64,000 bases of DNA from Planctomycetota bacterium (GTDB taxonomy: Bacteria > Planctomycetota > UBA1135 > UBA2386): contig JBCCGH010000003.1 in assembly GCA_039029375.1 (NCBI GenBank), positions 63,375 to 127,374 of the forward strand. The letters are read 5' to 3'. Positions 13,985-36,145 of this stretch are shown here, one piece after another. Both the position numbers and the translations under genes were made by a program. The notes beneath the pieces are model-generated. The model did not search any database. It saw only the letters and a program-made list of their open reading frames with translations, and was not told where the DNA came from. Position 1 is the first letter of the stretch. The number at the start of each line of letters is the position of its first letter.

Positions 13985-14311
13985 GGTGGGAAAGAAGCAT
14001 CGATAAGGTAGCACGGGGGTGCCGACCCGCGACCTTTCCGATCAAACTGCCGGTCTCACCGAGCACTGGCGGGGCGCCCGTTTCGAGGGCGCGCGGCACG
14101 ACCGCCGCGGCGCGCGAATCCCGCGATGCCGCCGGGTTGCCGGGGACGGGGCGCCGGCCGCCCCAGCCTCGGGGCCCGGCGGCTTGAGCGCCCGCCGCGG
14201 GCCGATGGCGCACGGCGCAGAATCCGCCGCCCACGAACCCGTCCTCCCGGCGACATCGCGGGTTTGCCGCCCCTAACGGTCGCCGAATCGGGAGTAGACT
14301 GTCCCAGACGC

Positions 14312-15688
14312 ATGACCACACCGCATCCCTACGAGGCCCAGAAGCGCGAGAACGACGCCAAGGTGCTCGCCGCCGAGCGTGCCGGCAGCGGCGTAGTCGA
14401 CGGTTGGCCCATGCACGCCGTGTTCGAGTTCACCGGCGCGTGCAACCTCCACTGCTTCATGTGCGGCTTCGAGATGCTGCGCGACGAGCTCCGCGACAAG
14501 GGCCAGACGCGCTTCACCTTGCCGATCGACATGTTTCGGCTCGTGGTGGAGCGCGCCTTCCCTCACATCCGCACGGTCAACCCGACCCTCGGCGGCGAGC
14601 CCCTCGTGCTGCCCTACTTCGACGAGCTGCTCGAAGCCGTGGCGCATTACGGCTGCAAGCTCGAGATGTTCACCAATGGTATGCTCCTGCGCGGCGAGCG
14701 AATGGAGAAGATGCTGCCACACGTCGCGCGGCTCACGGTGTCCTTCGACGGCGCCACCAAGGCCACGTTCGAGCACATCCGCACCGGCGCCAACTTCGAG
14801 CAGGTCGTGGACAACGTCGCACAGTTTGCGCGCCGACGCCGCGGGCTGGGCCTGCGCGATCAGCTGAAGTTCTGCTTCAACGTCGTGCTCATGCGCGAGA
14901 ACGTGCGCGAGCTGCCGGCCATTGTCGATCTGGCCGCGGCGCACGACGTCGAGTTCGTGTCGGCGTGCTACATCATCGAGACCGACCCCAGCCTGCGCGG
15001 CTCGCTGCCGACCCACTGTCCGGCGGAAACCAACGCGGCTCTGGCCGAGGCACGCGCGCGGGCCAAGGCCCATGGGATCGAGATCGAGTTCCCCGAGCCC
15101 CTCCCGGAAGACGCGCCGCCGCCGGCCGCAGCCGCGCCCCGGTCCGAGCCCCGGTCCGAGCCCCGGTCCGAGCCCCAATCCGAGCCCCAATCCGAGCCAC
15201 CGTCGACCAAGACAGCCGCCGCGACCAAGGCCGCCGCCCCAGAGGCCGCGCCAACCGCAGTGCCCACGGCGACGCCCGCCGAATTCCCAGCACCACCCGC
15301 CGAATTCGTCGTGCCCGAGCCCGCCTGCGCAGCCCCGGACGCGGGCGCCGTCGAGGAGCCGGCGCCGCGGCCGATGGCCCAACCCGCGGATTGGCGCGGC
15401 AAGTACTACTGCGACATGCCGTGGCGCCGCGTCTTCGTCGGGCTCGGCGGCGAGGTCTTCCCCTGCTGTGGGCCCGATCGGCCGATCCTCGGCAACGCGT
15501 TCGAGCAGGACTTCCAGACGATCTGGAACGGCGAAGAGTACCGCCGCCTACGCGAGGGGCTCTTCACCGGCAACCTGACGGACTACTGCGCCAAGTGTCC
15601 CTACCTGCAGAAGGCGGGGATGCTTCCGTATCAAGAACGTACGGAGCCGCGACAAAAACCGCCGGATTCGGCCGTCGCGGCGGAGTAA
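14312..15688 (+). CDS. Radical SAM protein with C-terminal SPASM/twitch-like Cys motifs and an internal Pro/Ala/Glu-rich insertion
   Basis: CxxxCxxC cluster: FTGACNLHCFMCGF. It has a TIM-barrel-type radical SAM core. The C-terminus reads YYCDMPW...FPCCGP...DYCAKCPY. A low-complexity linker of about 95 aa (PRSEPRSEPRSEPQSEPQSEP...) lies between the core and the Cys-rich tail. The start taken is ATG 14312. Confidence 0.85.
   Translation: MTTPHPYEAQKRENDAKVLAAERAGSGVVDGWPMHAVFEFTGACNLHCFMCGFEMLRDELRDKGQTRFTLPIDMFRLVVERAFPHIRTVNPTLGGEPLVLPYFDELLEAVAHYGCKLEMFTNGMLLRGERMEKMLPHVARLTVSFDGATKATFEHIRTGANFEQVVDNVAQFARRRRGLGLRDQLKFCFNVVLMRENVRELPAIVDLAAAHDVEFVSACYIIETDPSLRGSLPTHCPAETNAALAEARARAKAHGIEIEFPEPLPEDAPPPAAAAPRSEPRSEPRSEPQSEPQSEPPSTKTAAATKAAAPEAAPTAVPTATPAEFPAPPAEFVVPEPACAAPDAGAVEEPAPRPMAQPADWRGKYYCDMPWRRVFVGLGGEVFPCCGPDRPILGNAFEQDFQTIWNGEEYRRLREGLFTGNLTDYCAKCPYLQKAGMLPYQERTEPRQKPPDSAVAAE
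15137..15196 (+). repeat. 12-nt tandem repeat x5 inside the radical-SAM gene (encodes PRSE/PQSE x5)
   Basis: ccccggtccgag occurs 3 times, followed by ccccaatccgag twice, in frame. Confidence 0.95.
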
Positions 15689-16272: not shown

Positions 16273-16523
16273 TACGACGACTCGGCGCGCGACCACGCCG
16301 AGGGCTCACCATCGTCCTCGTCGAGCGTAACGTGGATGACGTTGGGGTGGCAGCAGACGGGACAGTCCTCGACGTACCGCTGCGAGGCGCCTGCCGCCAC
16401 GTCGATGGGCACCACGATCTCCTCGCCGCACGAGTCACAGATGTAGCTCGCCGTGAACACGGCGCGAGGATACCCGATGGAGCGGCCGAGCCCGCCACCA
16501 GCGGCCACCGGCGTATAGTGCAC
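16272..16523 (-). CDS. CPXCG-motif cysteine-rich (zinc-ribbon-like) small protein
   Basis: ...YICDSCGEEIVVPIDVAAGASQRYVEDCPVCCHPNVIHVTLDEDDGE. This is a CxxC ... CPxCC pair with an acidic tail. The likely true start is GTG 16460 (62 aa), because 16523 would leave 2 nt to the divergent kinase gene. Confidence 0.6.
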   Translation of the reverse strand: MHYTPVAAGGGLGRSIGYPRAVFTASYICDSCGEEIVVPIDVAAGASQRYVEDCPVCCHPNVIHVTLDEDDGEPSAWSRAESS

Positions 16524-16525
16524 CT

Positions 16526-17698
16526 ATGACGGCGCCGGCGGCGCAAACCCCCAATCGGTCCATGGAGCTCTCGGCTCTGTTTGCGGCCACGGTGCTCGTC
16601 GCCGCGGCGCCGGCGCTGGTGCGTTATGCGGCGCCGACGCTGGCCTACGGGACGCTAGTGACGGCGGTGGCACTTCAGTGCGTTCTCGGCACCTTCGTCT
16701 TTCCCTCGGTCGAACGCCACCGCCCCCGGCACCTCCCCTACCTCGCGACCCAAACCGCGTTGGCGCTGGCGATCATCTACCTGGCGCGCAGCTACGGTCC
16801 GGTCCCGATCATCCTGATCCCGCTCGCCGCCCAGGCGGGCCTGCTGCTCGAGTGGCGCGGCGCGATGGTCTTCGCGGTCACGCTGACCCTGCTGAAGAGC
16901 GCCCTCAATCTGGCCCTCGGCGCCGATCTCGACTGGCTCCTGGTGTGGACGCTGACCGCCGGCACCGGCGTTTTCTTTGGGGTGCTCTTTGCCCAGGTGA
17001 TCCGCGACGTGCGCCGCTCGCAGGCCGAAGTCGAACGACTCAATCGCGATCTCTCCGCCGCCAACGAACGCCTCCAAGACACCGCGCGTCACACCGCGTC
17101 GCTCGCCGCGGCGGAGGAACGCAACCGGCTGGCACGCGAAATCCACGACAGCGTCGGCCACGCGCTGACGACGCTGCGGGTACAGCTCGACGCCGCCGGC
17201 CAGGTACTGAGCCAAGACCCCGACCGCGCCCGCGACCTGATCGACAAAGCGCACACGGTCGCCGGGCAAGGCCTGGACGAAGTCCGCCGGGCGGTCGCCG
17301 CCATGCGTGCCGAGCCCGTGCCACGCGAGCTGGCGACAGCGCTCACCGAGTTGGTCGAACGAGCGCGACAGACCGGCCTCCACGTCCAGCTCGACGTCGA
17401 CGGCGCACCACGACCGCTGGCGCCGGAGATCTACACCACGCTGTACCGCACCGCGCAGGAAGGACTCACCAACGTGCGCAAGCACGGCGCCAACGGCACC
17501 GCCCGGCTCTCGTTGACGTTGACCCCGGAGCGGGCCCGGCTCGCTCTGCGCAATGCCGCCGAAGCGAATGGCGCGGCCCCGCCCAGCGGCTTCGGCCTCC
17601 TCGGCCTGCGCGAGCGCGCCGAGTTCGTCGGCGGCTCGCTGCAGGCGCGGCGCGACGGTGACGAGTTCGTGCTCGACCTCGAGGTGCCGCTCCAGTGA
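16526..17698 (+). CDS. Membrane sensor histidine kinase, HisKA_3 (NarX/DesK-like) type
   Basis: The N-terminal 160 aa are hydrophobic with several TM segments. A coiled coil follows, then the H-box EERNRLAREIHDSVGHALT and an HATPase_c region (GLTNVRKH ... GFGLLGLRERA). The 3' end overlaps the response regulator by 4 nt. Confidence 0.9.
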   Translation: MTAPAAQTPNRSMELSALFAATVLVAAAPALVRYAAPTLAYGTLVTAVALQCVLGTFVFPSVERHRPRHLPYLATQTALALAIIYLARSYGPVPIILIPLAAQAGLLLEWRGAMVFAVTLTLLKSALNLALGADLDWLLVWTLTAGTGVFFGVLFAQVIRDVRRSQAEVERLNRDLSAANERLQDTARHTASLAAAEERNRLAREIHDSVGHALTTLRVQLDAAGQVLSQDPDRARDLIDKAHTVAGQGLDEVRRAVAAMRAEPVPRELATALTELVERARQTGLHVQLDVDGAPRPLAPEIYTTLYRTAQEGLTNVRKHGANGTARLSLTLTPERARLALRNAAEANGAAPPSGFGLLGLRERAEFVGGSLQARRDGDEFVLDLEVPLQ

Positions 17699-18378
17699 CG
17701 GACCAGATCCGCGTGCTGCTCGTCGACGATCAGCCGCTGCTGCGCGAGGGTCTGCGACTCCTGTTCGAGCTGCAGTCCGACTTCGAGGTCGTCGGCGAAG
17801 CGGGCGATGGCGCCGAGGCGCTGCTGCGGCTCGAGGCCGCCACGGCCGTCGACGTCGTGCTGATGGACGTCCAGATGCCGGGCGTCGATGGCGTCGAGGG
17901 GACCCGGCAACTCCGCGCGCGGTTTCCCGACGTGCAGGTCATCATCCTGACAACCTTCGACGACGACGAGTACGTGTTCGAAGGGCTCCGCGCCGGCGCC
18001 TGCGGCTACCTGCTCAAGGACGTCTCGTCCGAGCGCCTCTTCGAGGCGACCCGCGCCGCCGCCCGCGGCGAGAGCTTTCTGCAGCCGTCGATCGCCGCCA
18101 AAGTGGTGGCCGAGCTGAGCCGCCTCAGCGAGCCCACGACGCAGCGCGCCGCCGCCAACGCCGAGCTCGAGGCGCCGCTCAGCGACCGCGAGCTGGAGAT
18201 CCTCGGGCACCTGGCCGCCGGCCACAGCAACCGGCAAATCGCGGCGCACGTGTTCTTGAGTGAGGGCACCGTCAAGAACCACATCACCGCCATCTTGGCC
18301 AAACTGGGCGTCCGCGATCGCCAGGCAGCGGTGGCGGCGGCGCGAGAACGGCGCCTGCTCCCGCCGGGCGGCAGTTAG
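17695..18378 (+). CDS. Response regulator, NarL/FixJ family (REC + LuxR-type HTH)
   Basis: REC domain: IRVLLVDDQPLLREGL, DVVLMDVQMPGVDG. C-terminus: LSDRELEILGHLAAGHSNRQIAAHVFLSEGTVKNHITAILAKLGV. Confidence 0.95.
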   Translation: MTDQIRVLLVDDQPLLREGLRLLFELQSDFEVVGEAGDGAEALLRLEAATAVDVVLMDVQMPGVDGVEGTRQLRARFPDVQVIILTTFDDDEYVFEGLRAGACGYLLKDVSSERLFEATRAAARGESFLQPSIAAKVVAELSRLSEPTTQRAAANAELEAPLSDRELEILGHLAAGHSNRQIAAHVFLSEGTVKNHITAILAKLGVRDRQAAVAAARERRLLPPGGS

Positions 18379-21179: not shown

Positions 21180-22694
21180 ATGACTGACCGAACGATGCTC
21201 TCCCGCCGCCGCTTCTCCCAGCTCCTGGCCGGCGCCGCCGCCGCCGGGTGGCTCGAACTCCCCTACGCCGCCCGCCTGCTGGGCCGCCGGACCAACCGCC
21301 TCAGCTGGCGCGCCCACCGCACCGCTGGCGCCGAGGGGGTCTGGGCCCTCGACGACATCGACGGCGAGATCCCCGCCGACCTCCATGGCACCCTCTACCG
21401 CACGGCGCCGGGCGAGTCCGAGCGCTTTGGCGTGACGTTCCAGCACTTGTTCGACGGCGACGCCTACCTCAGCGGCTACAGCTTTCGCGACGGCAAGGTG
21501 ACGCTGCGCGCGGGCTTTCTCGACCAGCCCCGACGCCTGCGGGAGCAAGAGGCTGGCAAAATGCTCTACTCCGAGTTCGGCACCGCGACCCCGGACGGCA
21601 ACGGCCGCGACGGCAAGAACCAGCCAAGCGTCAACGTCATCCCCTGGGACGGCCGCCTCCTCGGCCTTTCCGAAGGCGGTCACCCGACCGCGATCGATCC
21701 GGCGACGCTACGCACGCAGGGCGGCTGGGACTTCCACGGCACGTTGCCCCAGCAGCACTCGTTCACCGCGCACCCCAAGTTCGATCCCGCGACCGGCCTC
21801 GGCTACTGCTACGGCATCGTGCAGGGCCCCGGGATGGCGCTCCGCGTCTACCGTATGGAGCGCGACGGCACGCTGACCAACCTGTTCAGCCTGCCGCAAC
21901 GCGGCTACTTCATGGTGCACGACATGATGCTCACGGCGGAGCACATCGTGTTCTTGGTCCCGCCGGTGACATTCGACCTCGGCCAGCTGATGAACGGCGA
22001 GGGCACGATCGGCGACTGCCTGCGGTACGCCGAGGACCGGCCGTTGCGGGTGCTCGTGATGCGCAAAGACGGCGAGGGCGTGGCCGACGAGATCGACCTG
22101 GACGCGGGCATGGTGTTTCATCACGGCAACGCGCGCCTGGACAGCGACCAGCTCATCCTCGACTCGCTGCTCTCCCCCAGCGGCGACGTGCTGAAGTTTC
22201 TGCATGCCTGGGCCGCCGACAAGATGCCGCGAGGGCAGCCGGTGCAGGCGACGCGGTTGACGATCGACCTGGCCAAGGGTGAGCTGGCGAGCCGCGATGT
22301 GTTCGCCGAGCAAGAGGAGTTCCCGCGCTTTGACGAGCGGCACACCGGCACGGAGGCCCGCTACCTCTACGCCGCGGGGCAGCCGCCGAAGGACGACGGC
22401 ATGGCGTTCCAGGCGTTGGTCCGGCACGACCGGCGCGAGGGTACGGACGAGGCGCGCCGCGTCGCCGCGCACCAGACCGTGGCCGAGCCGGTGTTCGTCC
22501 CGCGGAACGCGGATGCGGCGGAAGGCGACGGCTGGCTGCTGCAGCTAGGCTACGACGGACGTCGCGACCAGACGTTCCTCGACGTCGTCGACGCCGGCAC
22601 GCTGGACCGCGCAGCGCGCGTGTGGACCGGCACGCACATCCCGCTCGGCTTCCACGGCACCTTCGCGCCCGACCTGTTCGTCGCGGCGGAGTAG
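21180..22694 (+). CDS. Carotenoid cleavage oxygenase (RPE65/CCO) family protein, Tat-signal-like N-terminus
   Basis: The N-terminus LSRRRFSQLLAGAAAAG is twin-arginine-like. The conserved His contexts are HPKFDP, MVHDMM, FHHGNA and GFHGTF. Confidence 0.85.
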   Translation: MTDRTMLSRRRFSQLLAGAAAAGWLELPYAARLLGRRTNRLSWRAHRTAGAEGVWALDDIDGEIPADLHGTLYRTAPGESERFGVTFQHLFDGDAYLSGYSFRDGKVTLRAGFLDQPRRLREQEAGKMLYSEFGTATPDGNGRDGKNQPSVNVIPWDGRLLGLSEGGHPTAIDPATLRTQGGWDFHGTLPQQHSFTAHPKFDPATGLGYCYGIVQGPGMALRVYRMERDGTLTNLFSLPQRGYFMVHDMMLTAEHIVFLVPPVTFDLGQLMNGEGTIGDCLRYAEDRPLRVLVMRKDGEGVADEIDLDAGMVFHHGNARLDSDQLILDSLLSPSGDVLKFLHAWAADKMPRGQPVQATRLTIDLAKGELASRDVFAEQEEFPRFDERHTGTEARYLYAAGQPPKDDGMAFQALVRHDRREGTDEARRVAAHQTVAEPVFVPRNADAAEGDGWLLQLGYDGRRDQTFLDVVDAGTLDRAARVWTGTHIPLGFHGTFAPDLFVAAE

Positions 22695-22714: not shown

Positions 22715-23539
22715 CTACAGGTAGTCGAAGCGCTGCATCAGCTCGCCGCAGACTTCCTCGATCACGGCGACGTCTGCCTCGGACAGCTCGCGCTGCCAGC
22801 GACCACGCGAGCTCTCCGGCGTTGGCGCGGTGCCGTGCGTGCGGAAGGGCCCGCCGGTCTCGAGTGCGCGCTCAACCCACTTGTGCCATTCGAGCCCGAG
22901 GAACGCGAGGACCTGCTCGATGTGGTGCCGAGGCTCGGCCACGGTGTCCTCGTAACGCATGACTAGCGGGTTCGCCACGCGCTCCAGCAGCCCGGCGTAG
23001 AGCGTCGACCAGGAGCGCGCCAACACCGGCGCGGTCAAGTCGATGAGCTCGGGGTAGTTCGCCTTGATGTTGTCGCGCTTGGCGTATGCACGCCACGAGC
23101 AGAGGACGTCGCGCGGGTCGCGGACGAGGATCAGGTAGCGGTAGTCCGGCCAGAGGTTCATGGCCGTGAGCGCCGCGCGCGGGTCCGGCAGCTTGTCGCC
23201 AAACCAGCGGTACTTCTTCTTCGGAAACAGCTCGCGGTAGAAGTCCTCGGCCGCCTCCTTGGTGCGCCCGGTAAACACCTTGGCGATCGCCGGCTGATGG
23301 TGCTCGCCCACGATGCCGCGCATGTGCACGTCCTCGCGGGTCACGAAGTGACCGATGCGCGTTTCCGGCACGTTCACCAGCTCCACGCAGAAGTGGAGGA
23401 AGTCGAAGACGCGCGCCTCGTTGGACAGTGCGATCTCGGGATGCTCGCGGAGCACCTCGTACAGCCACGTCGACCCGCAACGGCCGGAGCCGAGGATCAA
23501 GAAGAGCGAGGCGTTGGGACGGTCGGAGGCCGCGGGCAT
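22715..23539 (-). CDS. Sulfotransferase family protein
   Basis: 5'-PSB-like loop: LILGSGRCGSTWLYEVL. A later RDPRDV segment is 3'-PB-like. The ATG at 23539 lies 19 nt after the stop of the upstream GTPase-kinase gene. Confidence 0.7.
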   Translation of the reverse strand: MPAASDRPNASLFLILGSGRCGSTWLYEVLREHPEIALSNEARVFDFLHFCVELVNVPETRIGHFVTREDVHMRGIVGEHHQPAIAKVFTGRTKEAAEDFYRELFPKKKYRWFGDKLPDPRAALTAMNLWPDYRYLILVRDPRDVLCSWRAYAKRDNIKANYPELIDLTAPVLARSWSTLYAGLLERVANPLVMRYEDTVAEPRHHIEQVLAFLGLEWHKWVERALETGGPFRTHGTAPTPESSRGRWQRELSEADVAVIEEVCGELMQRFDYL

Positions 23540-23558
23540 GCTGCGCAAAGAGTAAGGC

Positions 23559-25223
23559 TCAGTCCTGCACGCTCGCCACCATGGATCGGGGCGGCATGAC
23601 CGGCTCGAAGGGGATCGAGAGCGAGAAACGCGTCCATTCGCCTTCTTCGGACTCGACCCAAACTTGCCCACCGTGACCGAGCGCGACCTCGCGCACGATG
23701 TGCAGGCCGAGACCCGTGCCGCTGACACAGCCGGTGTTGCTACCGCGCTCAAAGCGCTTGAACAACCGCGGCAGATCCTCGGCCGGGATGCCGATCCCGT
23801 TGTCCTCGACCTCGAACACGTGCTGATCGCCTTCGGCTCGGTGTCGCACCGAGATCCGCGGCCGGCGCTCGGGATGCGTGTACTGCAGCGCGTTGCCGAC
23901 CAGATTCATGAACGCCTTGCTCAGCGCCCAGGTATCGGCGGCGATGGTCGGCAACGGCTCGATCCGGCAGCAGACGTCCTTTTGATCGATCTCGAAGCGG
24001 AGCGTGCGCACGACGTCCGCGACGATCAGCGTGGCGTCGGTCTCCTGGAAATGCAGCTGCACGCCATCGTCGTCTAGTCGCGAGCTATCGAGCAGCTCGT
24101 GCACGAGCTTCTCCATCTGCTGGATCGCCAGGAGACCGTTGTCCACGGCGTCGTGCCCGCGCTTCTCGAGCTCGCCAAAGAGCCCCTGCCGCAGCGAGGA
24201 CAGCATCAGCTTGACGACCGAGAGCGGCCGGTTGAGGTCGTGCACCGTGTTCTGCGCGATCTCGACCAGCTCACGGTTGCGACGCTCCAGCAACCCCTTG
24301 TAGCGATCCAGCTCGCCGAAGTGCTCGGCAAGCTCGACGTTCGTCCGGATCACATCGTCGAGCAGCCGCTCCGGGTCTTCGTCGACGGGATCGGTCGCGA
24401 CCTCGGTCCCGTCGGGAGCGGCGAAGAGCTCGGGGTTGAGGTCGTCGTCACTCAACACCTCGGGCTCCGGCTGGTCGGCCTTCTTGCCGTCGGACAGCCA
24501 GTCGGGCACGGTCACCTGGACCTTGCCGCTGTCGCCGTCGCCACGGTCGTCGCGGCCCTGATCGTGCAGCTCCCAGAGCTTGGCGCGCGCACCCTCGGCG
24601 ACCGTCTCCGGCGCGGCGCCGCGGCGCCCGAGCCCGTACTGCAGCACCTTCGATTCGACGATCTGGCCAGCGGCGTGCACGAACGTCTCAAACACGCCGT
24701 GCCCCTCGCGCGCCACACTCGGAAACGAGGACACTCCCTCGCGCCAAGCAAACGCCTCGTCGAGCTCACCCTCGGGCAGGATGTCGTCCAGATCGCGCTT
24801 GTTGTACTGCAGGACGATCGGCGTGGTCTCCGGGTCGAGACCGTTCGACGACAGATTCTCTTTGAGGCTCAGCAGCGACTGTTGGTTCTCTTCGAGCCGG
24901 CTGCGTTGGCTATCAACGACGAACACCACGGCATCCGCGCCCTGCAACACGTAGCGGCGCATCCGCTTGTACTTGGGCTGCCCCGGCACGGTGAAGCCCT
25001 GGATGCGGATCTTGAAGGTCTCGATCTGGCCGAGATCGATCGGCAGAAAGTCGAAGAGCAGCGTCGAGTCGTCCTCGGTGTTGATCGAGACGAGCTGCAC
25101 CTCGTCCTTGGGGCACAACACGGTGTGCACGTGCTGGAGGGATGTGGTCTTCCCGCCCATGCCGACGCCGTAGTACACCAGCTTGGCGCAGATCGTCTTG
25201 TCTGCGAGATTGATGAATCCCAT
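23559..25223 (-). CDS. MglA-like small GTPase fused to a histidine kinase (HisKA + HATPase_c)
   Basis: The N-terminal 190 aa are collinear with MglA. Matching segments are MGFINLADKTICAKLVYYGVGMGGKTT (P-loop), DSTLLFDFLP (switch I), TVPGQ (switch II), YNKRD and SVAREGHGV. A coiled coil follows. The H-box is VHDLNRPLSVV, the N-box is NLVGNALQYT, and the G-boxes are VEDNGIGIP and GTGLGLHIV. Confidence 0.85.
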   Translation of the reverse strand: MGFINLADKTICAKLVYYGVGMGGKTTSLQHVHTVLCPKDEVQLVSINTEDDSTLLFDFLPIDLGQIETFKIRIQGFTVPGQPKYKRMRRYVLQGADAVVFVVDSQRSRLEENQQSLLSLKENLSSNGLDPETTPIVLQYNKRDLDDILPEGELDEAFAWREGVSSFPSVAREGHGVFETFVHAAGQIVESKVLQYGLGRRGAAPETVAEGARAKLWELHDQGRDDRGDGDSGKVQVTVPDWLSDGKKADQPEPEVLSDDDLNPELFAAPDGTEVATDPVDEDPERLLDDVIRTNVELAEHFGELDRYKGLLERRNRELVEIAQNTVHDLNRPLSVVKLMLSSLRQGLFGELEKRGHDAVDNGLLAIQQMEKLVHELLDSSRLDDDGVQLHFQETDATLIVADVVRTLRFEIDQKDVCCRIEPLPTIAADTWALSKAFMNLVGNALQYTHPERRPRISVRHRAEGDQHVFEVEDNGIGIPAEDLPRLFKRFERGSNTGCVSGTGLGLHIVREVALGHGGQVWVESEEGEWTRFSLSIPFEPVMPPRSMVASVQD

Positions 25224-25366: not shown

Positions 25367-26725
25367 CTACCTGGGCTCTCCCGTCGGCGCCGTGGCCTCC
25401 ACGGGAGCGACCGGCGCCCGCGGCACCAGGACGAAGACACCCGTTCGGTCGGACGCCTGCGCCGCTTCGAGCGCGGCCAGCACAGCCTCGCCCGGCACAC
25501 CTCGCGCCAAGGCCTCGGGGTCGTCGGGCCAGCGACGCAGCGCCGCGATCGCCAGCGCCCGGGCCAACGGCTGCAGGGCCCGGGGGTGCACTGTAGCGCC
25601 GGGGACCGCCACCAGCGGCGCCCCGAGCTGCCGCGCAAGGCGCGCCCGGGCCGCCTCGATCTCGGCGGCGCCCGGCGGATCTCGCCGCAGATCGGCGACG
25701 AACTCCGCCAACTCAGCGCGCACCGCGTCCGGCTGGTCGCCGTCGCGAGCCCGGCGATAGACCAGTGCCACCGGGTCGAGCAATGGGTCATAGCGCATCG
25801 GCGGGCAGTCGGCCCAGAACTCGTGCCCGCGGGCAGCTCCCAGCGCCTTCACGGCGCGCGCCCGCACCAGCTCCATCGCCAGCCAGAATGCCGGCAGGCT
25901 GGCATCCTCGGGCTCCGGCGACCGCCACGCGTGGACGGCGTACGGGGCGGCCACACGTCGATGGTCACGCACGGTCGGCGCTCTAGACGAGCGGACGTGC
26001 CGCGCCACGCTCGGGCACGGCCCCCGGGGCCCTTCGAGCTCGCTGAACATCCGATCGACGGTCGCCTCGAGCGCCGCCACCGAGCGCCCGCCAACCAGAA
26101 CGAGCGTGGCGCAGCGCGGCTGCAGGGCGGCGCGCAGGTGCTGCCGCAGCCAGCCAGCGTCGACCACTTCGATGTCGGCGACCGTACCGTGCACCGGCCG
26201 CGCGGCGCCCCGCCCGGCGAGGAGGCCGGCCCGCGCCAGGTTGAGCAAGATTGGCCCAGGGATGAGCTCACTCTCGTCATCGGCGCGGAGGGCGGCGCGC
26301 CAGCGCGCCCGCTCGAGCAGATCGTCATCGCTGCGTTGCGCCAAACGCAACAGTTCGACGAGCGCCGCGAGCGACGCCGCACCACTGGGATCCGGCCCCG
26401 TGCGCGACAGCAAGATCGCCGGCTCGGACACTTCGACCAACGCCACGGGCGTGGCTCCGCTCGGCGCGTCGGGCGCGGGTTCGGCCAACAGGCGCAGCGC
26501 TTCGCCGACCATAGCCGCCGCCCCGGCCGCCCCGTCAGGATCGTGCTGCGCCCCGACGCCCAACGCCAACACCACGCAAGCCCCGCGCGCGTTCGGCATC
26601 GACACGCAGCGCGCGGTGAGCCCGTGATCCAGCGTGCGCACCTTGCCCGCGACGGGCGCCGACTGCGCCGCGCCGTTCGCCGCTACCAGCGCGGCGAGAC
26701 CGAGCCCCCACCACCATGCCCTCAT
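25367..26725 (-). CDS. Secreted M16 (pitrilysin)-like peptidase homolog lacking the HxxEH zinc motif
   Basis: Signal peptide: MRAWWWGLGLAALVAANGAAQ. The N-terminal M16-like pattern is ...LALGVGAQHDPDGAAGAAAMVGEAL, where HxxEH would be expected. The protein is about 450 aa. The 5' end overlaps the ABC gene by 4 nt. Confidence 0.45.
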   Translation of the reverse strand: MRAWWWGLGLAALVAANGAAQSAPVAGKVRTLDHGLTARCVSMPNARGACVVLALGVGAQHDPDGAAGAAAMVGEALRLLAEPAPDAPSGATPVALVEVSEPAILLSRTGPDPSGAASLAALVELLRLAQRSDDDLLERARWRAALRADDESELIPGPILLNLARAGLLAGRGAARPVHGTVADIEVVDAGWLRQHLRAALQPRCATLVLVGGRSVAALEATVDRMFSELEGPRGPCPSVARHVRSSRAPTVRDHRRVAAPYAVHAWRSPEPEDASLPAFWLAMELVRARAVKALGAARGHEFWADCPPMRYDPLLDPVALVYRRARDGDQPDAVRAELAEFVADLRRDPPGAAEIEAARARLARQLGAPLVAVPGATVHPRALQPLARALAIAALRRWPDDPEALARGVPGEAVLAALEAAQASDRTGVFVLVPRAPVAPVEATAPTGEPR

Positions 26726-28059
26726 CCCGCTACCGCGACTTGTCGGCCGCGCTCCAGTCGAATCATTCGGTCGGCGCAGGCCTCGGCCAGCCCGACGTCG
26801 TGCGTGATCAACACACAGGCCGCGCCGCTCGTCTGCAGCACCGCCAACAACAGCGCGACGACGCCAACCGCGGTGGCCCGATCGAGGGACGCGGTCGGTT
26901 CATCGAGGATCAAGATCTCGGGCCGCACCGCCAAGGCGCGCAAGAGCGCGGCGCGACGGCGCTCCCCGCCCGATAACGCGGCGGCGGGGCGCGCCAGATG
27001 CGCGGACGTCAGGTGCAGCTGCGCCGCGGTCGCATCGAGGTCGAAGCCCGGCACCGCGACCTCACGTACCAACGCGCCGACGGGCACACCGGGAGTCAAT
27101 GAGGCAAACGCGTCTTGAAACAGCAGTTGCACTGCAGCGCGCGGGGCCGGCCGCTCGACCTTGCCCGTGGTTGGACGCAGGTGCTGCGCCAGCAGCTTGG
27201 CGAGCGTGGTCTTGCCCGCGCCGGATGGCCCCACCACGGCCACCACTTCGCCGGCAGCGAGCGTCAGGTCGAGGTCGCGCAGAATCCAGTGGCGCCCGCC
27301 GATCCGCCGGCCGAGGCCGTAGCACCGCAGCACGGCGCGAGCGGTCGGGGCGCGTCGCTCGCGGCTGGGCCAGGGCGGCAGGGCCGGGGCGCCCGCGACA
27401 AAGACCCCGCCACTGGTGAAGTGCAGGGGCGTGGCGGCCAGCGCGCGGACGACGGCGTGGTCGTGCGTCGCCACAAGGACAGCAGTGCCGTGCAGGCGCC
27501 GCACCGCCGCGAGCGCGTCGAGCACGCGCTTGGCGATCGCGTCGTCGAGACCCGCGGTTGGCTCATCGGCGATCAACAGCGCCGGACGGCGCAGCATGGC
27601 GGCGGCGAGGGAGCAGCGCTGGGCCTGCCCACCGGAGATCTGATGCGGATACCGCCGCATCAGCAGACGGGGCTCGGCGATCCCGACGTCCGCCAGCGCC
27701 TGCGCGACGTCCACGCGGGCGCGGCGACTGGCGATCGCCAGCTGCTCGCCCAGGCGCACCAGCGGATCGAAGGCGCTCGGAGCGTCCTGCGGCGCGATGG
27801 CCACGTGGTTGCGCAGCAGCTCCCGCAGCCCGGCACCCGCCGGCAGGGCGTCTCCCAGACAGTGCACTTCACCGCGGATCCCCAGCCCTGGATCCAGGCG
27901 AAACAACCCCCGAAGTACACTGGTCTTCCCGCAACCCGAGGGACCGAGCAGGGCCGCGGCTCCGCCGGGATCGAGCGCCAGCTCCGGGACTTCCGCTCGC
28001 ATCGCCGGGACGCGCTCCACGGCGAAGCCGCGTAGGCTCAGGACGGGCTCGGCGGCCAC
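26722..28059 (-). CDS. ABC transporter ATP-binding protein with two fused nucleotide-binding domains
   Basis: Walker A motifs: GPSGCGKTS and GPSGAGKTT. Signature motifs: ISGGQAQRCSLA and LSGGERRRAALL. Walker B motifs: LLIADEPTAGLD and ILILDEPTASLD. Confidence 0.85.
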   Translation of the reverse strand: MAAEPVLSLRGFAVERVPAMRAEVPELALDPGGAAALLGPSGCGKTSVLRGLFRLDPGLGIRGEVHCLGDALPAGAGLRELLRNHVAIAPQDAPSAFDPLVRLGEQLAIASRRARVDVAQALADVGIAEPRLLMRRYPHQISGGQAQRCSLAAAMLRRPALLIADEPTAGLDDAIAKRVLDALAAVRRLHGTAVLVATHDHAVVRALAATPLHFTSGGVFVAGAPALPPWPSRERRAPTARAVLRCYGLGRRIGGRHWILRDLDLTLAAGEVVAVVGPSGAGKTTLAKLLAQHLRPTTGKVERPAPRAAVQLLFQDAFASLTPGVPVGALVREVAVPGFDLDATAAQLHLTSAHLARPAAALSGGERRRAALLRALAVRPEILILDEPTASLDRATAVGVVALLLAVLQTSGAACVLITHDVGLAEACADRMIRLERGRQVAVAG

Positions 28060-28168: not shown

Positions 28169-29320
28169 ATGATCCGGACCGCCATCACCGTCGCGATCGC
28201 CTGCGCCGTCATCAGCGGCGCCCCGGCCCGAGCTCAGGAGGGCGGCTCGGGCACTCCACTCGATGCACTGCACGAGGCCTACCAGCAGGAGCGCCTCAAG
28301 CTGCTGCAGGGCAGCGCCGGCTTCGAGGCGATGCGGGAGCTCACCGAGGGCTTTGTCACCAAGCTGGCGAAGTTCGTGGCCGAGGACGCCAAGGGCACCG
28401 ATCGCCACAACGGGCGGCTCATGCTCGTCGACTACCGGCTGAGCCTCGGCCAGCGCGAGCAAGCGACGGAGGCGCTGCTCGAGCTCGACGCCGAGTCGGC
28501 GCCGGCGTTGGCGCTCGCCGGCGCCGCCGAGTTTGCCAAATACCTCGACCTGCAAGAAACACGCGCCGCGTGGATCGAGGCGGCGCTGGCCAAGAAGGAG
28601 TCGTTTGAGAATCGCATGGCGCTGGGCATGCACCTCATGACACGCCTAGAGGAGATCGAGCAGGGCGAGGCGGTGTTTGCCGCGGCGTTCGCGGCGGCCG
28701 GCGACGACGAGGCGCGCGCCCGGGTCCGCTGGTACCAGGCCGCGGCGCTCCGCGAACGCGAGGACCTCGGCGAAGACGACTACGAGACCGCGCTCAAGGA
28801 GCTGGCCGAGGAGTTCCCGGACACGCGCTTTGGCGACATCGCCACCGACCGGCTCCTCGCCCGCATGCTCAAGCCCGGCGCCGACGCCATCGGTCTGGCG
28901 GCGCGGGCCCTCGACGGCAGCGAAGTGCGGTTGAGCGGTCTCACCGGCAAGGTCGTGCTCCTCGACTTCTGGGCCACCTGGTGTGGCCCTTGTCGCGACG
29001 TCATGCCGGCGCTCCGTGAGCTCTACACGGAGCACCACGAGCGGGGCCTCGAGGTGATCAGCATCGCCATGGACCCGGACGTCGACGCGGTGCGCCGCCT
29101 CGTCGCCGAGCAGAAGATGGAGTGGCCGGTCATCTGCGATGGCGACGGCCCCATGTCCGAGCCAGCCCTGCGCTGGGCGGTCGACGGCCCACCGCGGATG
29201 GTGCTGATCGGCCGCGATGGCAAGATCGCCGAGCTGCGCCTGTTTCCCTACGACCCGACCGGCCTCGAGCGGGCACGGGCCGCGATCGACACGGCGCTGG
29301 CACAGGACGCGGGTCAGTAG
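28169..29320 (+). CDS. TlpA-family thiol:disulfide oxidoreductase with N-terminal helical (TPR-like) domain
   Basis: Signal peptide MIRTAITVAIACAVISGAPARAQ (ATG 28169; 28130 is an alternative). The thioredoxin fold carries LLDFWATWCGPCR. Confidence 0.8.
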   Translation: MIRTAITVAIACAVISGAPARAQEGGSGTPLDALHEAYQQERLKLLQGSAGFEAMRELTEGFVTKLAKFVAEDAKGTDRHNGRLMLVDYRLSLGQREQATEALLELDAESAPALALAGAAEFAKYLDLQETRAAWIEAALAKKESFENRMALGMHLMTRLEEIEQGEAVFAAAFAAAGDDEARARVRWYQAAALREREDLGEDDYETALKELAEEFPDTRFGDIATDRLLARMLKPGADAIGLAARALDGSEVRLSGLTGKVVLLDFWATWCGPCRDVMPALRELYTEHHERGLEVISIAMDPDVDAVRRLVAEQKMEWPVICDGDGPMSEPALRWAVDGPPRMVLIGRDGKIAELRLFPYDPTGLERARAAIDTALAQDAGQ

Positions 29321-29331
29321 CGGGATCGCGC

Positions 29332-30219
29332 GTGAAGCCTGCTGACGAACGCACGGCCCGCTTCTGGGAGGCGAGCCACGCCGCAGACTGCGCCGCCGAT
29401 GCGTTTCTCGAGCATCCGGTCATCCAAGCGTACTTGTCGCTGCGCGCCTACGGCAGCACGCGAGCGCATCTGGACGTCGCGATCGACGAGCTGCGCCAGC
29501 GCACCGCCCCTGGCGCGCGGATCCTGTCGGTCGGCTGTGGCGCCGCCAACAAGGAGCGGGTGATCTGCCGCGCGCTGCCCGACCGCCAGATGTTCGGCGT
29601 GGACGTCGCGCGGCAGACACTCGCTCGCACCGCCGAGGAGTGCCGGGCCGAGGGCATTGACAACCTCACGCTGGACTACGGCGACTTCAACGCGCTCGAC
29701 CTCGAGCCCGCGTCGTTTGACGCGATCCTTGGGCTTGGTGCGATCCACCACGTTGAGAACCTGGAGAGCTTTTGGACGCAGTGCCGGAGCGCGCTGCGGC
29801 CGGCCGGGTTCGTGCTCGCGCAGGAGTATGTCGGGCCGAGCCGCTTCCAATGGACGGACGCGCAGATCGCGCACGGCAACCGCGTGCTCGCTGACCTCGT
29901 ACCGCGCGCGCTTCAGGTGCATCACACCGAGGTCCAGCGGGTCGTCCTCGCGGAGATCATCGCCGCCGACCCCTCCGAGGCAGTGCGCTCCGAGGAGTTG
30001 CTGTCGACGTGCACGGCCGCCGGCCTGCGCCTGGACGCGCATCACGGCGCGGGCTGCGGCCTACTGCTGCCGGTCCTGTGGGACCAAGTACACGCCTTCG
30101 ACCCGCACGATTGGGACCACAATCATGTGCTGTTCCAGCTGTTCGCTGCCGAAGCCCAGCTCATCGACGACGGCGTCGTGGGCGACTGCTACGCGATGTT
30201 CTCAGCCGTCCCGGCCTAG
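29332..30219 (+). CDS. Class I SAM-dependent methyltransferase
   Basis: Motif I is RILSVGCGAANKE, followed by FDAILGLGAIHHV. The GTG start at 29332 lies 12 nt after the upstream stop. The stop TAG at 30217-30219 lies in the terminus of MITE A copy 2. Confidence 0.75.
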   Translation: MKPADERTARFWEASHAADCAADAFLEHPVIQAYLSLRAYGSTRAHLDVAIDELRQRTAPGARILSVGCGAANKERVICRALPDRQMFGVDVARQTLARTAEECRAEGIDNLTLDYGDFNALDLEPASFDAILGLGAIHHVENLESFWTQCRSALRPAGFVLAQEYVGPSRFQWTDAQIAHGNRVLADLVPRALQVHHTEVQRVVLAEIIAADPSEAVRSEELLSTCTAAGLRLDAHHGAGCGLLLPVLWDQVHAFDPHDWDHNHVLFQLFAAEAQLIDDGVVGDCYAMFSAVPA

Positions 30220-30384
30220 TGGTGTGTCTCCGAAGTTCGTCACATATGGCGCCGGCCCTCCGCGCCGTTCGCTGCGTTGTGTCGCCTCAACTTGTCCACC
30301 AACAAGCCCTGCGGCGACAACGCCTTGCGAACGACACAGATTCCTCGCCGACTTATGCAACGAACTTCGGAGACACACCACTAG
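30216..30384. mobile_element. MITE-like palindromic element A, copy 2 (complete, 169 bp)
   Basis: Perfect 25-nt terminal inverted repeats: ctagtggtgtgtctccgaagttcgt ... acgaacttcggagacacaccactag. The element fills the whole gap between two convergent genes. Both stop codons are the TAG of the terminal CTAGs. Confidence 0.85.
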
Positions 30385-31058
30385 CACGACACGAGCCAAG
30401 CGATACCGACCACGATCGACACGGTGCCGACGGCGACCATCAGCCGCGGCACCGCCCGATCACCACAGGAGCGCACCAGCCAGCCGATCGCACCGCCGAA
30501 CCCGGTCATGATCGCGACGCTGGCAGCGAGGTAGCTGCCGATGAAGACCGCGGCGTCCGGTGGGGCCATCGCCAGCGACGGGATGACGGCCCAGAAGTGA
30601 CCCGCGCCGGCGAGACCGTGCAGCACGCCAACGCCAAACGCAGCGTGGCGGTGACCGTGCGGGGGAGCGGCGGGCCCGTGTGCATCGCCATCATGCCGAT
30701 GCTCGGGGTGGTGCACGTGGAGATGCACGTGCTCGCCCTCGCCGTGCGAATGCGCGTGGTCGTGCACGACCAGCCCCCGCGCCCGGCGCAACGCCGTCAA
30801 GCCGATCACGATGAGCACGACACCGACCAGGCGCTCCGCCCATCCCGATGCGATCTCGACGTCGGTGAACGACAGCGCCGTTTGCCCCAGCAGACCGAGC
30901 AGCGCCACGCCGAGGCCGTGGCCCAAACCCCACAGGGCACCGATGGCCGACGGGCGCAGGCGACGGGGCGCGCCGACGGCCAAGGGGGCCACGCCGGCCA
31001 GATGATCCGGGCCGGTCATCACGTGGGCAGCGCCGGCGAGGAGTCCCTGGACGATCAT
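30381..31058 (-). CDS. HupE/UreJ- or NicO-like nickel/cobalt transporter with a His-rich loop
   Basis: The N-terminal motif AAHVMTGPDHLAG is the H-x5-DH type. There are about 6 hydrophobic segments. The central loop is HDHAHSHGEGEHVHLHVHHPEHRHDGDAHG.... Confidence 0.55.
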   Translation of the reverse strand: MIVQGLLAGAAHVMTGPDHLAGVAPLAVGAPRRLRPSAIGALWGLGHGLGVALLGLLGQTALSFTDVEIASGWAERLVGVVLIVIGLTALRRARGLVVHDHAHSHGEGEHVHLHVHHPEHRHDGDAHGPAAPPHGHRHAAFGVGVLHGLAGAGHFWAVIPSLAMAPPDAAVFIGSYLAASVAIMTGFGGAIGWLVRSCGDRAVPRLMVAVGTVSIVVGIAWLVSC

Positions 31059-31273
31059 GCGTTCACCGCCGCCGATCGTACCGGATGCGGACTCCACAAC
31101 AACGGCGACGACGCGGGCCCCGTTCCGGGCCTACGACCAGGGCCAAACGGCCGCGGCCGCGAGCGCTGCAACAGCGTCCCGCGGCCGCGCGGGGCCTGCC
31201 CATCGGTCACCCGATGGAACAGGCCCCCCTGATGCCAAGACGCCCTCCCCGCGAGGGCGCCGGTGCACACCGG

Positions 31274-32527
31274 TCACTTGAAGTTCTTCATCAAGAACTT
31301 CCGGTAGAGCAGCACCTCGCCCTTGTCGTCGATGTGGACGCGGGTCTTGTCGCCCGCGAGGTGGTCCTTGTCGACGACGGCGTAGTAGACGTGGCCGATT
31401 TCGTCGCTGGCCTTCACCAGGATGGCGACCTGGATCTCGCTCATGTCCTCCTTCATGAAGCGATCGATCGCCCAGCGCCAGCTCTCGCGCCGCTCCCAGG
31501 CGTGCATCGGGATGTGCATCGCGAGCACTTCCTCCTTGCTGTGCTTCTTCTTCCACGCCTTTTCGACCAAAGCCAGGATCGCGGCCTTATCGCCACCGTT
31601 GTAGAGGTCCTTGGGCGTGGTGTTCTTCTCGAGGATCTGGGTCTCCATGCTCGCCTGGGTCTGCGCGACGAGCTTCTCCGAAGCCTTGTGGGCCTTGCGG
31701 AGACGCTTCACCTCGGCATTGCCGGGATCGAGCAGCTCCAGCTGCTGCAGGTAGAGCTCGGTCCGGGCGAACGACTGCTGGATCCCACCGGCCGTGAACG
31801 GCCGGGTATCGCCGCGCTCTTTGGCGAGCTCCACCAGTCGCTCGACCTGGCCGAACTCCCACTCGACCTGACCAGGCAGCTGCGGGATGACCTTCTGCGC
31901 CTCGTCGCGGAACTTCTGCAGCTTGTAGTCAAAGCTCCGGATCGCGTTGTTCATGTTGGTGCCAACGTGTTGCCCCAGCACTCCGGCGTAGCGCTCTGCC
32001 ATCGCGTCGCGGCACTTGACCAGCTCGGGCATCTTGCTGACCGTGTCGATCGCCCGCTGCGCGTACTTCGCGTTGGTCGTCGGCTCGTGGATCATCCTCT
32101 CGAGCGCCTGGAGCTGCTTGGCGTCCTCTTCGATCGAGCCGGCGGCAGCCTCGGCAGCCTGGGCCTGGCCAGCCTGCGCGGCTTGAAACACCTGCTGGGC
32201 GGCAAGCAGCTCGGAGGCCCGATTCGCCGCTCGCTGCTGGAGCGCCTTGACAGCGTCGTCGTCCGCCGGCAACTGCGCCAAGCGCGACAGCACGTTGTTG
32301 AGCTTCTGGCCCGCCCAATTGACCTCGTTGAGCGCGGCTTGCAGCTCGTGGGGTGCCATCGACGCCGCGTTCTTGGCCTTCTCGGTCAGCTTCGGGACGT
32401 TCTTGTCGACGTCCTTCATGTAGTACTCGGCGTCGGCGAGCGGGCGCTGCAGGGATGGCGCGGCCTGGAGGGTGGTGACGGCGAGGAAGAGTGCTGTGGC
32501 GATCGCGACGAGGGTGATCAGTTGCAT
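31274..32527 (-). CDS. Secreted hypothetical protein, Lys/Gln/Ala-rich and helical
   Basis: Signal peptide: MQLITLVAIATALFLAVTTLQA. I recognise no domain. It is visibly more A/T- and Lys-rich than its neighbours (...KAWKKKHSKEEV..., ends ...LLYRKFLMKNFK). Confidence 0.55.
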   Translation of the reverse strand: MQLITLVAIATALFLAVTTLQAAPSLQRPLADAEYYMKDVDKNVPKLTEKAKNAASMAPHELQAALNEVNWAGQKLNNVLSRLAQLPADDDAVKALQQRAANRASELLAAQQVFQAAQAGQAQAAEAAAGSIEEDAKQLQALERMIHEPTTNAKYAQRAIDTVSKMPELVKCRDAMAERYAGVLGQHVGTNMNNAIRSFDYKLQKFRDEAQKVIPQLPGQVEWEFGQVERLVELAKERGDTRPFTAGGIQQSFARTELYLQQLELLDPGNAEVKRLRKAHKASEKLVAQTQASMETQILEKNTTPKDLYNGGDKAAILALVEKAWKKKHSKEEVLAMHIPMHAWERRESWRWAIDRFMKEDMSEIQVAILVKASDEIGHVYYAVVDKDHLAGDKTRVHIDDKGEVLLYRKFLMKNFK

Positions 32528-32835
32528 CGTTCGGGTCTCCGGTTTCGGTCGGGAGCAGGCGAAAAGGCCTGCCCTGCCCGTCCCGCGAGAAGGCCGGCTG
32601 AAACACGCAAACGGTCTCTGAGAAATCTTCTGGCTCTGGGCGGGGCCAGCGCGAAGCGCGGGCCACTGCGACCCATCGGCCCGGTCCTGGGTGTCACCCA
32701 TGTACTCGGGTCGCCACCCCGGACGCCCACCTTCATTCCCCAACTCCCGATGCCGGGGCGGCTCCGCCCCCATCCCCGAGAATTCCGCAGCTTCCATTGC
32801 GTGTTCCGCCTCGGGATTTCGCGGGTCCCAGCAAC

Positions 32836-33258: not shown

Positions 33259-33286
33259 CGAGACCCGCGCGCTACATTGACGGCTG

Positions 33287-36112: not shown

Positions 36113-36145
36113 TTCGCACGACCATTGGCGCTGTATGCTGCGCCC

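Follow-up and report, generated by a model that had tools for sequence, protein, structure and literature searches.

Introduction

Can a small Ras-like GTPase and a histidine kinase work together within a single bacterial protein and, if so, which of the two would govern the other? The question is raised by a gene in a 64,000-nucleotide stretch of DNA from a Planctomycetota bacterium (GenBank assembly GCA_039029375.1, contig JBCCGH010000003.1, positions 63,375 to 127,374 of the forward strand), which is referred to here as the window and numbered from its first letter. The gene lies on the minus strand at 23559-25223; its open reading frame (ORF) begins with ATG and encodes 554 amino acids (aa), in which a GTPase domain of the MglA type is followed by the HisKA and HATPase_c domains of a histidine kinase. 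Cell signalling has two great switch systems, small Ras-like GTPases and two-component phosphorelays, and in bacteria these are known to meet only indirectly, for example where Frz and RomR act on MglA, or in the poorly understood conservons of Actinobacteria. A natural and widespread single polypeptide containing both would be Rosetta-stone evidence for the joint action of MglA GTPases and histidine kinases.

The architecture was pointed out in a sequence-only reading of the window, which knew of no characterised example, and a full-text literature search found no paper on it (most subscription journals lay outside this search, so that the absence is no proof). Automated annotation already flags both domains, for instance under the JGI label 'signal transduction histidine kinase / SRP receptor subunit beta', and the architecture as such can be seen in databases. 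Newly recognised here are a family of these proteins, its signature, in which an arginine of the GTPase and a threonine of the kinase are both replaced, a sister family, and the orphan context of the genes.

A conserved family of fusion proteins

All three Pfam domains of the protein (Arf, HisKA and HATPase_c) score above the curated cutoffs. The GC content at third codon positions (GC3) is 0.87 over the stop-to-stop frame that contains the ORF, and a Shine-Dalgarno-like GGGAG lies 7 nt 5′ of the ATG. The protein has no transmembrane segment (the highest Kyte-Doolittle mean over 19 residues is 0.95) and is therefore cytoplasmic and soluble.

The same architecture is widespread. Among 5.8 billion proteins searched, more than 120 were full-length homologues with 50-68% identity and 96-100% coverage, the latter range excluding entries whose alignment is split by a long linker insertion. 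Kinase domains are present in 120 of 120 homologues and a precomputed Arf match in nearly all of them; most come from metagenome-assembled genomes (MAGs) labelled Planctomycetota. When one genome per GTDB species was scanned, relatives were found in 109 species-level genomes. Eighty related loci, encoding proteins with 44-70% identity to the fusion protein, were retained for neighbourhood counts, and these are labelled as Planctomycetota or its subgroups, or are unclassified ('bacterium', 'uncultured bacterium'). The fusion is thus a member of a large conserved family and no singular oddity; it is old and stable.

The sequence-only reading had itself warned that a sequencing frameshift around 24600-24700 might have merged two genes. 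That a frameshift or an assembly chimera joined an mglA gene to a kinase gene is next to impossible, and we regard it as excluded. The unusual architecture speaks for such an artefact, and nothing beyond it does. Against it stand the more than 120 independent full-length homologues, which come from many assemblies and sources and keep the architecture in one continuous ORF, the relatives in 109 species-level genomes, and a GC3 of 0.87 throughout the frame. Moreover, the suspected junction (residues ~175-208) is a conserved stretch in which K192 and L198 are invariant and Y196 is nearly so, so that conserved residues run across the very site in question.

The MglA-type G domain

Residues 1-195 (24639-25223, minus strand) form the G domain, part of which is recognised by Pfam as Arf (residues 65-159, 31.6 bits against a cutoff of 22.3). 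In a comparison with all PDB sequences, residues 1-190 are collinear with Myxococcus xanthus MglA (5ymx/6h17; E ~5e-45, ~42% identity) and align end to end with Thermus thermophilus MglA (3t12; E = 2.5e-44). The next matches, Arl8 and Arf, reach E values of only ~1e-4 to 1e-5; the domain is therefore specifically MglA-like and not a generic Ras-like domain. Foldseek matches the domain to solved MglA structures with TM-scores of 0.83-0.85 and 39-43% identity. The collinearity with MglA over the first 190 residues that had been read from the sequence is hence confirmed, and every motif quoted in its support was found in the order and at the positions given.

The nucleotide-binding motifs are intact. 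In the P-loop (G1) GVGMGGKTT (residues 19-27; 25143-25169), G19, G21, G23, G24, K25 and T26 occur in all family sequences that cover it. The G3/switch II motif TVPGQ (residues 78-82; 24978-24992), with the predicted catalytic Gln82, and the G4 motif NKRD for guanine specificity (residues 141-144; 24792-24803) are each present in 120 of 120 homologues, while the G5 residues Ser-Val-Ala (169-171) are nearly invariant. Both the P-loop and the NKxD motif align with those of MglA; failure to do so had been named beforehand as grounds for giving up the assignment. As far as motifs can tell, then, the G domain keeps every residue for GTP and Mg2+ binding together with the catalytic glutamine.

One catalytic residue differs. 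The G2/switch I motif DDST (residues 51-54; 25062-25073) aligns with TDRT of MglA, which puts Ser53 at the position of the R53 arginine finger, as the sequence-only reading had noted. The loss extends to the family as a whole: among the 120 homologues position 53 is Ser in 83, Ala in 36, Gln in one and Arg in none, and the neighbouring T54 is invariant. Group 1 MglA proteins have a signature G3 of TVPGQ, with Thr in place of the canonical Asp, and the R53 arginine finger beside the G2 Thr, which the GTPase activity of Group 1 MglA and SofG requires, has been described as conserved throughout Group 1 (PMC4316618). MglA proteins of Groups 2-5, by comparison, have GTPGQ with Thr and lack that Arg, and are still thought to cycle with GTPase-activating proteins (GAPs) of the MglB type (PMC4316618).

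The fusion protein shares with Group 1 MglA (M. xanthus and T. thermophilus MglA, and the paralogue SofG) the fold and sequence of the entire G domain, including G1, the G2 Thr, TVPGQ with its catalytic Gln, NKRD, G5 and a β2 segment of the form TLxFDFLP. It falls outside strict Group 1 because it has Ser or Ala instead of the arginine finger, because it is a 554-aa protein with a kinase attached instead of a single domain of ~195 aa, and because MglB is not encoded nearby. By these motifs the MglA domain of the family is Group-1-like, with a specific loss of the arginine finger and the catalytic glutamine kept. The missing arginine implies that hydrolysis is either intrinsically slow or assisted by an arginine in trans, while the invariance of Gln82 argues that hydrolysis still matters.

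The histidine kinase core

The kinase core spans residues 284-540 and is complete, with its H-box and its N, G1 and G2 boxes intact as originally described, and its F box likewise intact. A pre-DHp helix and the DHp (HisKA) domain occupy residues 284-385 (24069-24374, minus strand), an assignment based on the HisKA match (residues 321-385, 35.7 bits, E = 9.1e-9), on the alignment with Thermotoga maritima HK853, and on helices at 284-345 and 354-385 in an AlphaFold2 model, which was built from a 36-sequence family alignment and has a mean pLDDT of 75. The H-box HDLNRPL (residues 328-334; 24222-24242) contains the predicted phospho-acceptor His328, which aligns with H260 of HK853 and is invariant in the 120 homologues. 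The catalytic ATP-binding (CA) domain of the HATPase_c type follows at residues 393-540 (23604-24047), with the Pfam match at residues 433-540 (99 bits, E = 2.8e-28). Its boxes were located at 440-448 (N box), 474-479 (DNGIGI) and 502-507 (GTGLGL), and the residues invariant in the family are N440, N444, DNGxG at 474-478, R490, F491 and GxGLGL at 502-507. By its H-box His within a DHp domain and its GHKL domain with N, G1, F and G2 boxes, the core is that of a class I HisKA kinase.

HK853 is the best match, in structure and in sequence, to the DHp and CA core (E ~1e-25, TM-score 0.67-0.68), and the phospho-acceptor His and the N, G1, F and G2 boxes align between the two. HK853 differs in receiving its input from a periplasmic sensor, where the fusion protein has the G domain; the fusion gene also has no adjacent regulator of the RR468 type. 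A further difference lies within the H-box. Class I HisKA kinases carry a phosphatase motif, E/D-x-x-T/N, directly after the His, with T/N at the fourth position (H+4). The fusion protein retains the acidic residue (D329) but has Arg332 at H+4, the position of the phosphatase-critical Thr264 of HK853 (HDLNRPL versus HELRTPL). The family H-box is HDLN(R/K)P, with Arg at position 332 in 107 homologues, Lys in 12 and Ser in one. This substitution suggests a weak or altered phosphatase activity in a kinase-biased enzyme.

A disordered tether between the two domains

The G domain is extended by a helical segment at residues 196-226 (24546-24638, minus strand) with the consensus YGLGR...VAEGAR.KLWE, modelled by AlphaFold2 as helices at 198-201 and 205-226. 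In the family alignment L198, V208, A209, L216 and D221 are invariant here, and Y196 and W217 nearly so. It is followed by an acidic tether of ~57 aa (residues 227-283; 24375-24545; 17 D/E versus 4 K/R), which has a pLDDT below 50 at residues 228-279 and in which homologues carry insertions of very different lengths, the longest exceeding 200 alignment columns. The lone conserved island in this otherwise unalignable linker is the motif EVLSDDDLNPELF (residues 255-267; 24423-24461), for which the family consensus is EVLSDxELxxxL. Beyond the tether, one long helix (residues 284-345) continues into the first DHp helix.

The linker had been described as a coiled coil. This holds for its final part, the long helix, but not for the disordered acidic tether that precedes it. 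Similarly, the GTPase had been called hard-wired to the kinase; a direct mechanical link of this kind is made less probable by a disordered connection of variable length. The model thus pictures the G domain as tethered to the kinase instead of being rigidly coupled to it.

A sister family and other multidomain MglA proteins

An exhaustive HMMER search of 1.84 billion cluster representatives, with the G domain as query, yielded 5714 matches, of which the best 150 were inspected. Nearly all of these 150 begin with an MglA-like domain at residue 1 and continue for another 100-700 residues, and 17 have a histidine kinase C-terminus. The kinase-bearing proteins beyond the family itself are MglA-GAF-HisKA-HATPase_c proteins of ~700-760 aa, one MglA-GAF-PAS-histidine kinase of 934 aa, and a few shorter MglA-histidine kinase forms with Thr or Gln at position 53.

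The first of these architectures (MglA-GAF-HK, where HK stands for histidine kinase) constitutes a sister family, with 529 matches at E ≤ 1e-20 in Planctomycetota and Acidobacteriota (Thermoanaerobaculia). Like the fusion protein, its members have an N-terminal Group-1-like MglA domain from residue 1 and a C-terminal HisKA kinase. They differ from it in placing a GAF domain between GTPase and kinase, for which Pfam finds no counterpart in the fusion protein, in keeping the arginine finger (102 of 103 sequences), and in a canonical H-box of the form HEL.TPL with Thr at H+4. Relative to this sister family, the family of the fusion protein is therefore derived in two co-varying respects, R53 to Ser/Ala and the H+4 Thr to Arg/Lys. 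Outside its own family, the G domain has its closest relatives in the MglA-GAF-HK proteins (52-57% identity and 206-219 bits, compared with 157 bits for stand-alone M. xanthus MglA). This hints that the fused forms share an origin, a point that the kinase cores, at no more than 24-33% identity between the two families, are too divergent to settle.

Neither an MglB gene nor a receiver gene adjoins the MglA-GAF-HK gene at three loci from different assemblies; a fourth locus is nearly identical to one of the three. In Planctomycetota the MglA-GAF-HK gene adjoins dnaA-dnaN-dciA-gyrB, and in a Thermoanaerobaculales MAG it adjoins a gene for a PATAN/DUF4388 protein. This domain has previously been linked to MglA/MglB neighbourhoods; no PATAN protein was found adjacent to the kinase gene in the window.

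As a separate observation, more than 100 clusters at 50% identity consist of Group-1-like MglA proteins in which DRT, TVPGQ and NKRD are intact and which carry C-terminal tails of 100-400 residues, rich in E, P, A and K and free of Pfam domains. The 'single-domain' MglA proteins hence seem to be only part of the MglA family.

Partners sought in the gene neighbourhood

Both a GAP and a response regulator might be expected near such a gene, and the sequence-only reading had noted the lack of either next to it; this holds for the window and for the family. Among the window neighbours, including those within ±10 kb, no Robl_LC7 (Roadblock/MglB) Pfam match was found, and a phmmer search with M. xanthus MglB, a validated query, gave no match in the window and none at the 80 related loci, although a very divergent Roadblock protein could escape this single-sequence query. 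No unpaired receiver lies within ±10 kb of the kinase gene, the sole receiver of the 64-kb window being a NarL-type regulator paired with a HisKA_3 kinase (16457-18378), and only two of the 80 related loci have receivers within ±10 kb. Because receivers are nearly absent both here and at related loci, the protein is classed as a cytoplasmic, soluble orphan sensor histidine kinase, and this orphan status is compatible with a distal response regulator.

Relation to known signalling systems

In a 2014 survey, the Ras-superfamily GTPases were identified as single-domain proteins; no GTPase-kinase fusion was described, and Planctomycetota are not mentioned in the main text (PMC4316618). The closest characterised system is the conservon (AGPS) of Actinobacteria, in which the histidine kinase CvnA, the Roadblock protein CvnB, CvnC and the Group 2 MglA GTPase CvnD are separate proteins (PMC4316618, PMC13343842). 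CvnC is a probable guanine nucleotide exchange factor (GEF), and a GAF accessory protein (CvnF) can stimulate the kinase (PMC4316618, PMC13343842). The conservon has no response regulator and its GTPase has been proposed as the output (PMC4316618), while what CvnA phosphorylates is still unknown (PMC13343842).

Conservons and the fusion family have in common that an MglA-family GTPase is paired with a histidine kinase without a dedicated response regulator in the locus, and the GAF domain of CvnF recurs in the sister family. In contrast to the one polypeptide described here, which has neither a Roadblock nor a CvnC gene nearby, the conservon is a four-gene operon of separate proteins in which Roadblock and CvnC are obligatory. 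Its GTPase belongs to Group 2, with GTPGQ and NxFD in place of TVPGQ and NKRD; CvnA is membrane-bound, with HAMP or NIT domains, whereas the fusion protein is soluble; and conservons are an Actinomycetota system, whereas the fusion protein does not come from that phylum.

A Ras-like G domain and a protein kinase are also found in one polypeptide in the Roco proteins, including LRRK2, with the order Roc GTPase-COR-kinase. There the G domain is thought to regulate the kinase, and GTPase activity depends on dimerisation. The resemblance is one of concept: Roco proteins have a COR domain, for which Pfam gives no match in the fusion protein, a Ser/Thr kinase and a Roc G domain, as opposed to a GHKL histidine kinase and an MglA-type G domain. 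The protein should be described as a new fused variant combining two known module types, and as a member neither of strict Group 1 MglA nor of the conservon system.

Possible functions of the fusion protein

Tentatively, and with a chance that we put a little short of even, we favour a reading in which the G domain is the input switch of the kinase: its nucleotide state would govern autophosphorylation by reversible docking, with the output going to a distal regulator. The G domain would be the input module because it stands in the N-terminal position of a sensor and the protein has no other sensor domain and no transmembrane segment; the long, disordered tether makes control by reversible docking likelier than a relay of the piston or coiled-coil type. 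The G domain may cycle between GTP and GDP slowly when alone, or with an arginine provided in trans by a GAP or by the partner kinase subunit. In one of its nucleotide states, the G domain and its C-terminal helix, possibly together with the EVLSDxEL motif of the tether, would bind the DHp/CA core in cis or in trans and so alter autophosphorylation of His328, from which the phosphoryl group would pass to a response regulator whose gene lies at a distance.

Several observations are consistent with this reading. Both catalytic sets are under strong purifying selection across 120 homologues of 50-68% identity. The fusion has been maintained in the 109 species-level genomes noted above, and the sister architecture accounts for 529 matches in two phyla. 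The closest outside relatives of the G domain are themselves fused to kinases, in the MglA-GAF-HK proteins, and the conservon offers an independent precedent for functionally coupling an MglA-family GTPase to a histidine kinase (PMC4316618, PMC13343842). The structure model and its Foldseek matches bear out an MglA fold together with an HK853-like core. Control of phosphorelay output by the GTP/GDP state, as first proposed for this gene, is plausible.

Other observations weigh against it. The tether of ~57 aa, which is far longer in some homologues, offers no obvious allosteric path, and the AlphaFold2 model (pTM 0.43), in which the single domains are well folded, shows no confident docking of the domains or of the tether motif. 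Loss of the arginine finger could mean that the G domain no longer cycles. Gene neighbourhoods allow no GAP, GEF or response regulator to be assigned, and the direction in which information flows, from GTPase to kinase or the reverse, is unreadable from sequence.

A long, flexible, acidic and variable tether would also suit a kinase on a leash, and the G domain could serve localisation or scaffolding instead: in its GTP form it would tether the kinase to a landmark or partner complex, so that phosphorelay control would be spatial and not allosteric. In Myxococcus, MglA-GTP binds polar and motility-machine effectors. Most of the best 150 MglA-like representatives combine an N-terminal G domain with other modules or long tails of low complexity, suggesting a general function as a targeting head, and a cluster of FHA, PilM and pilin-like genes lies ~3 kb downstream in one sub-lineage. 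This pilus-like neighbourhood is, however, lineage-specific and absent from the window, and no MglA effector or landmark protein was identified; furthermore, the sequences right after the G domain and before the DHp domain are highly conserved, which hints at intramolecular contacts. On balance we consider a purely spatial role doubtful. A further possibility is that information flows the other way, as may be the case in conservons, with the kinase core acting upstream and using autophosphorylation, or ATP binding by the CA domain, to regulate nucleotide exchange, hydrolysis or effector binding by the G domain, which would itself be the output in place of a response regulator. At 78 of the 80 related loci no such regulator is adjacent, nor is there one next to the gene in the window, and the conservon, which also has none, provides both the proposal of a GTPase output (PMC4316618) and a kinase whose target is still to be found (PMC13343842). 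In addition, the loss of the arginine finger co-occurs with the gain of Arg or Lys at H+4, beside the phospho-His, where the sister family keeps both R53 and Thr. This direction of control is nevertheless unlikely: a kinase lacking its own sensor would have no signal to pass on unless it were regulated by a partner protein, the DHp domain is a normal HisKA domain whose HK853-like surfaces are typical of kinases working with response regulators, and orphan kinases are common.

The arginine-less G domain might, alternatively, be locked in a constitutively GTP-bound state and have a structural or dimerising role, or sense the cellular guanine nucleotide pool, instead of being a switch driven by a GAP and a GEF. 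The requirement for R53 in Group 1 MglA and SofG (PMC4316618) would fit such a pseudo-switch, as would the absence of Arg from position 53 in all 120 homologues and of any MglB found nearby. Invariance of Gln82 and of the whole of switch II would, however, be unexpected if hydrolysis were irrelevant, and MglA proteins of Groups 2-5 lack the same Arg and are still thought to cycle (PMC4316618); we therefore regard a locked switch as distinctly unlikely. Yet another arrangement, which we consider very unlikely, is a reciprocal unit in which, within the kinase homodimer, the arginine-less G domain would dock on the DHp domain beside His328, and the family-specific Arg or Lys at H+4 (R332), or an Arg of the partner subunit, would act as the missing finger, so that GTP hydrolysis and His phosphorylation would be coupled. 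The sole evidence for it is the pair of substitutions that separates the family from its sister. If true, it would amount to a bacterial histidine kinase counterpart of Roco/LRRK2 and of G proteins activated by dimerisation.

Whether or not the G domain proves to be the input switch of the kinase, the family would provide a compact and soluble system of ~60 kDa in which the mutual influence of nucleotide state and His autophosphorylation is directly measurable. The arginine-less clade and its arginine-bearing sister clade form a natural experiment on the MglA arginine finger. The view of how each module works individually would remain as it is.

Neighbouring genes

The gene directly downstream of the kinase gene encodes a sulfotransferase of 274 aa (22715-23539, minus strand; Pfam Sulfotransfer_3, E = 5.5e-20; Sulfotransfer_1, E = 4.4e-13). 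Near its N-terminus it has a P-loop-like GSGRCGST, as appropriate for the loop that binds the 5′-phosphosulfate of 3′-phosphoadenosine 5′-phosphosulfate. Its ATG at 23539 lies 19 nt after the kinase stop codon, exactly the distance first reported; no terminator-like site was found between the two genes on the minus strand, and they are probably co-transcribed here. As a conserved functional partner, the sulfotransferase was rejected: phmmer (E < 1e-3) finds no homologue at any of the 80 related loci, and at 63 of these the sequence continues downstream for at least 1.5 kb, which makes them testable. The adjacency is specific to this genome and incidental to the system. At related loci the downstream genes vary by lineage and encode an ECF sigma factor, bPH_2 membrane proteins or a secreted protein. 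A gene for an RPE65-type carotenoid oxygenase (21180-22694, plus strand) is convergent with the sulfotransferase gene.

The upstream genes are better conserved. A gene immediately upstream of the kinase gene (25367-26725, minus strand) encodes a secreted, divergent M16 (pitrilysin)-like protein of 452 aa with a signal peptide. It has no direct Pfam match, but eight of 24 family members match Peptidase_M16_C, and the family profile matches the zinc peptidase 3amj (E = 6.5e-12). Where the zinc motif is presumed to lie, as judged by eye and not by alignment, the sequence is GAAAMVGEAL, without HxxEH. The M16-like gene is found upstream on the same strand in 54 related loci, where its stop codon is separated from the kinase start by 39-271 nt (median 68); in the window the gap is 143 nt. 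These distances are compatible with co-transcription and do not prove it. Translational coupling was rejected, the apparent 4-bp overlap having come from stop-to-stop ORF coordinates.

Further upstream, a gene at 26722-28059 (minus strand) encodes an ATPase of 445 aa with two ABC domains and no membrane domain (Pfam ABC_tran twice, E = 1.2e-49), for which no NCBIfam equivalog reached its cutoff. This tandem ABC ATPase is encoded upstream on the same strand in 56 related loci. A divergently transcribed redoxin gene precedes the ABC and M16-like genes, and the block of ABC, M16-like and kinase genes stands within a wider housekeeping synteny (ComEC, coaD, RidA). Pfam searches with several other conserved neighbour clusters gave nothing informative.

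The sub-lineage with pilus-like genes comprises loci L081 and L082, together with four of the 80 related loci (L007, L014, L016 and L032). At L081 (12249-21683) the order is kinase, two bPH_2 membrane proteins, an FHA/YscD-like protein, PilM, a TPR protein and a prepilin-like (N_methyl) gene, a cluster resembling type IV pilus or type II secretion systems. MglA controls pili in Myxococcus, but a link to type IV pili was rejected as a general feature of the family, since the cluster is confined to these loci. Compared with L081, the window carries ~13 kb of inserted sequence (~29300-41500) between the redoxin gene and a conserved group made up of an uncharacterised gene and the RidA, coaD and ComEC genes (41514-45833). 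Among the proteins encoded by the insert are an S-adenosylmethionine-dependent methyltransferase (29122-30219), a Ser/Thr kinase-TPR protein (33281-36112), whose gene runs directly into that of an ECF sigma factor (36113-36673), and a protein of 1184 aa without a Pfam match (37940-41494).

Other genes of the window

Genes of sulfur-ester metabolism are scattered over the window and comprise, besides the sulfotransferase gene, a sulfatase gene (45867-47378, plus strand) and, near it, a gene that fuses a Ser/Thr protein kinase to an FGE-sulfatase (formylglycine-generating-enzyme-like) domain (49736-52621, plus strand). A divergent actin-fold protein (56026-57147, minus strand; MreB_Mbl 69 bits, Salactin 39 bits) is encoded two genes away from a ParA-like AAA_31 ATPase (57999-58793, minus strand), and this pair may be a cytoskeletal or segregation module. 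At the other end of the window, a nonribosomal peptide synthetase module (C-A-PCP; 10529-14041, minus strand) lies beside a gene for a radical SAM/SPASM enzyme (14012-15688, plus strand), and an ORF of 1563 codons extends over 5904-10592 on the minus strand.

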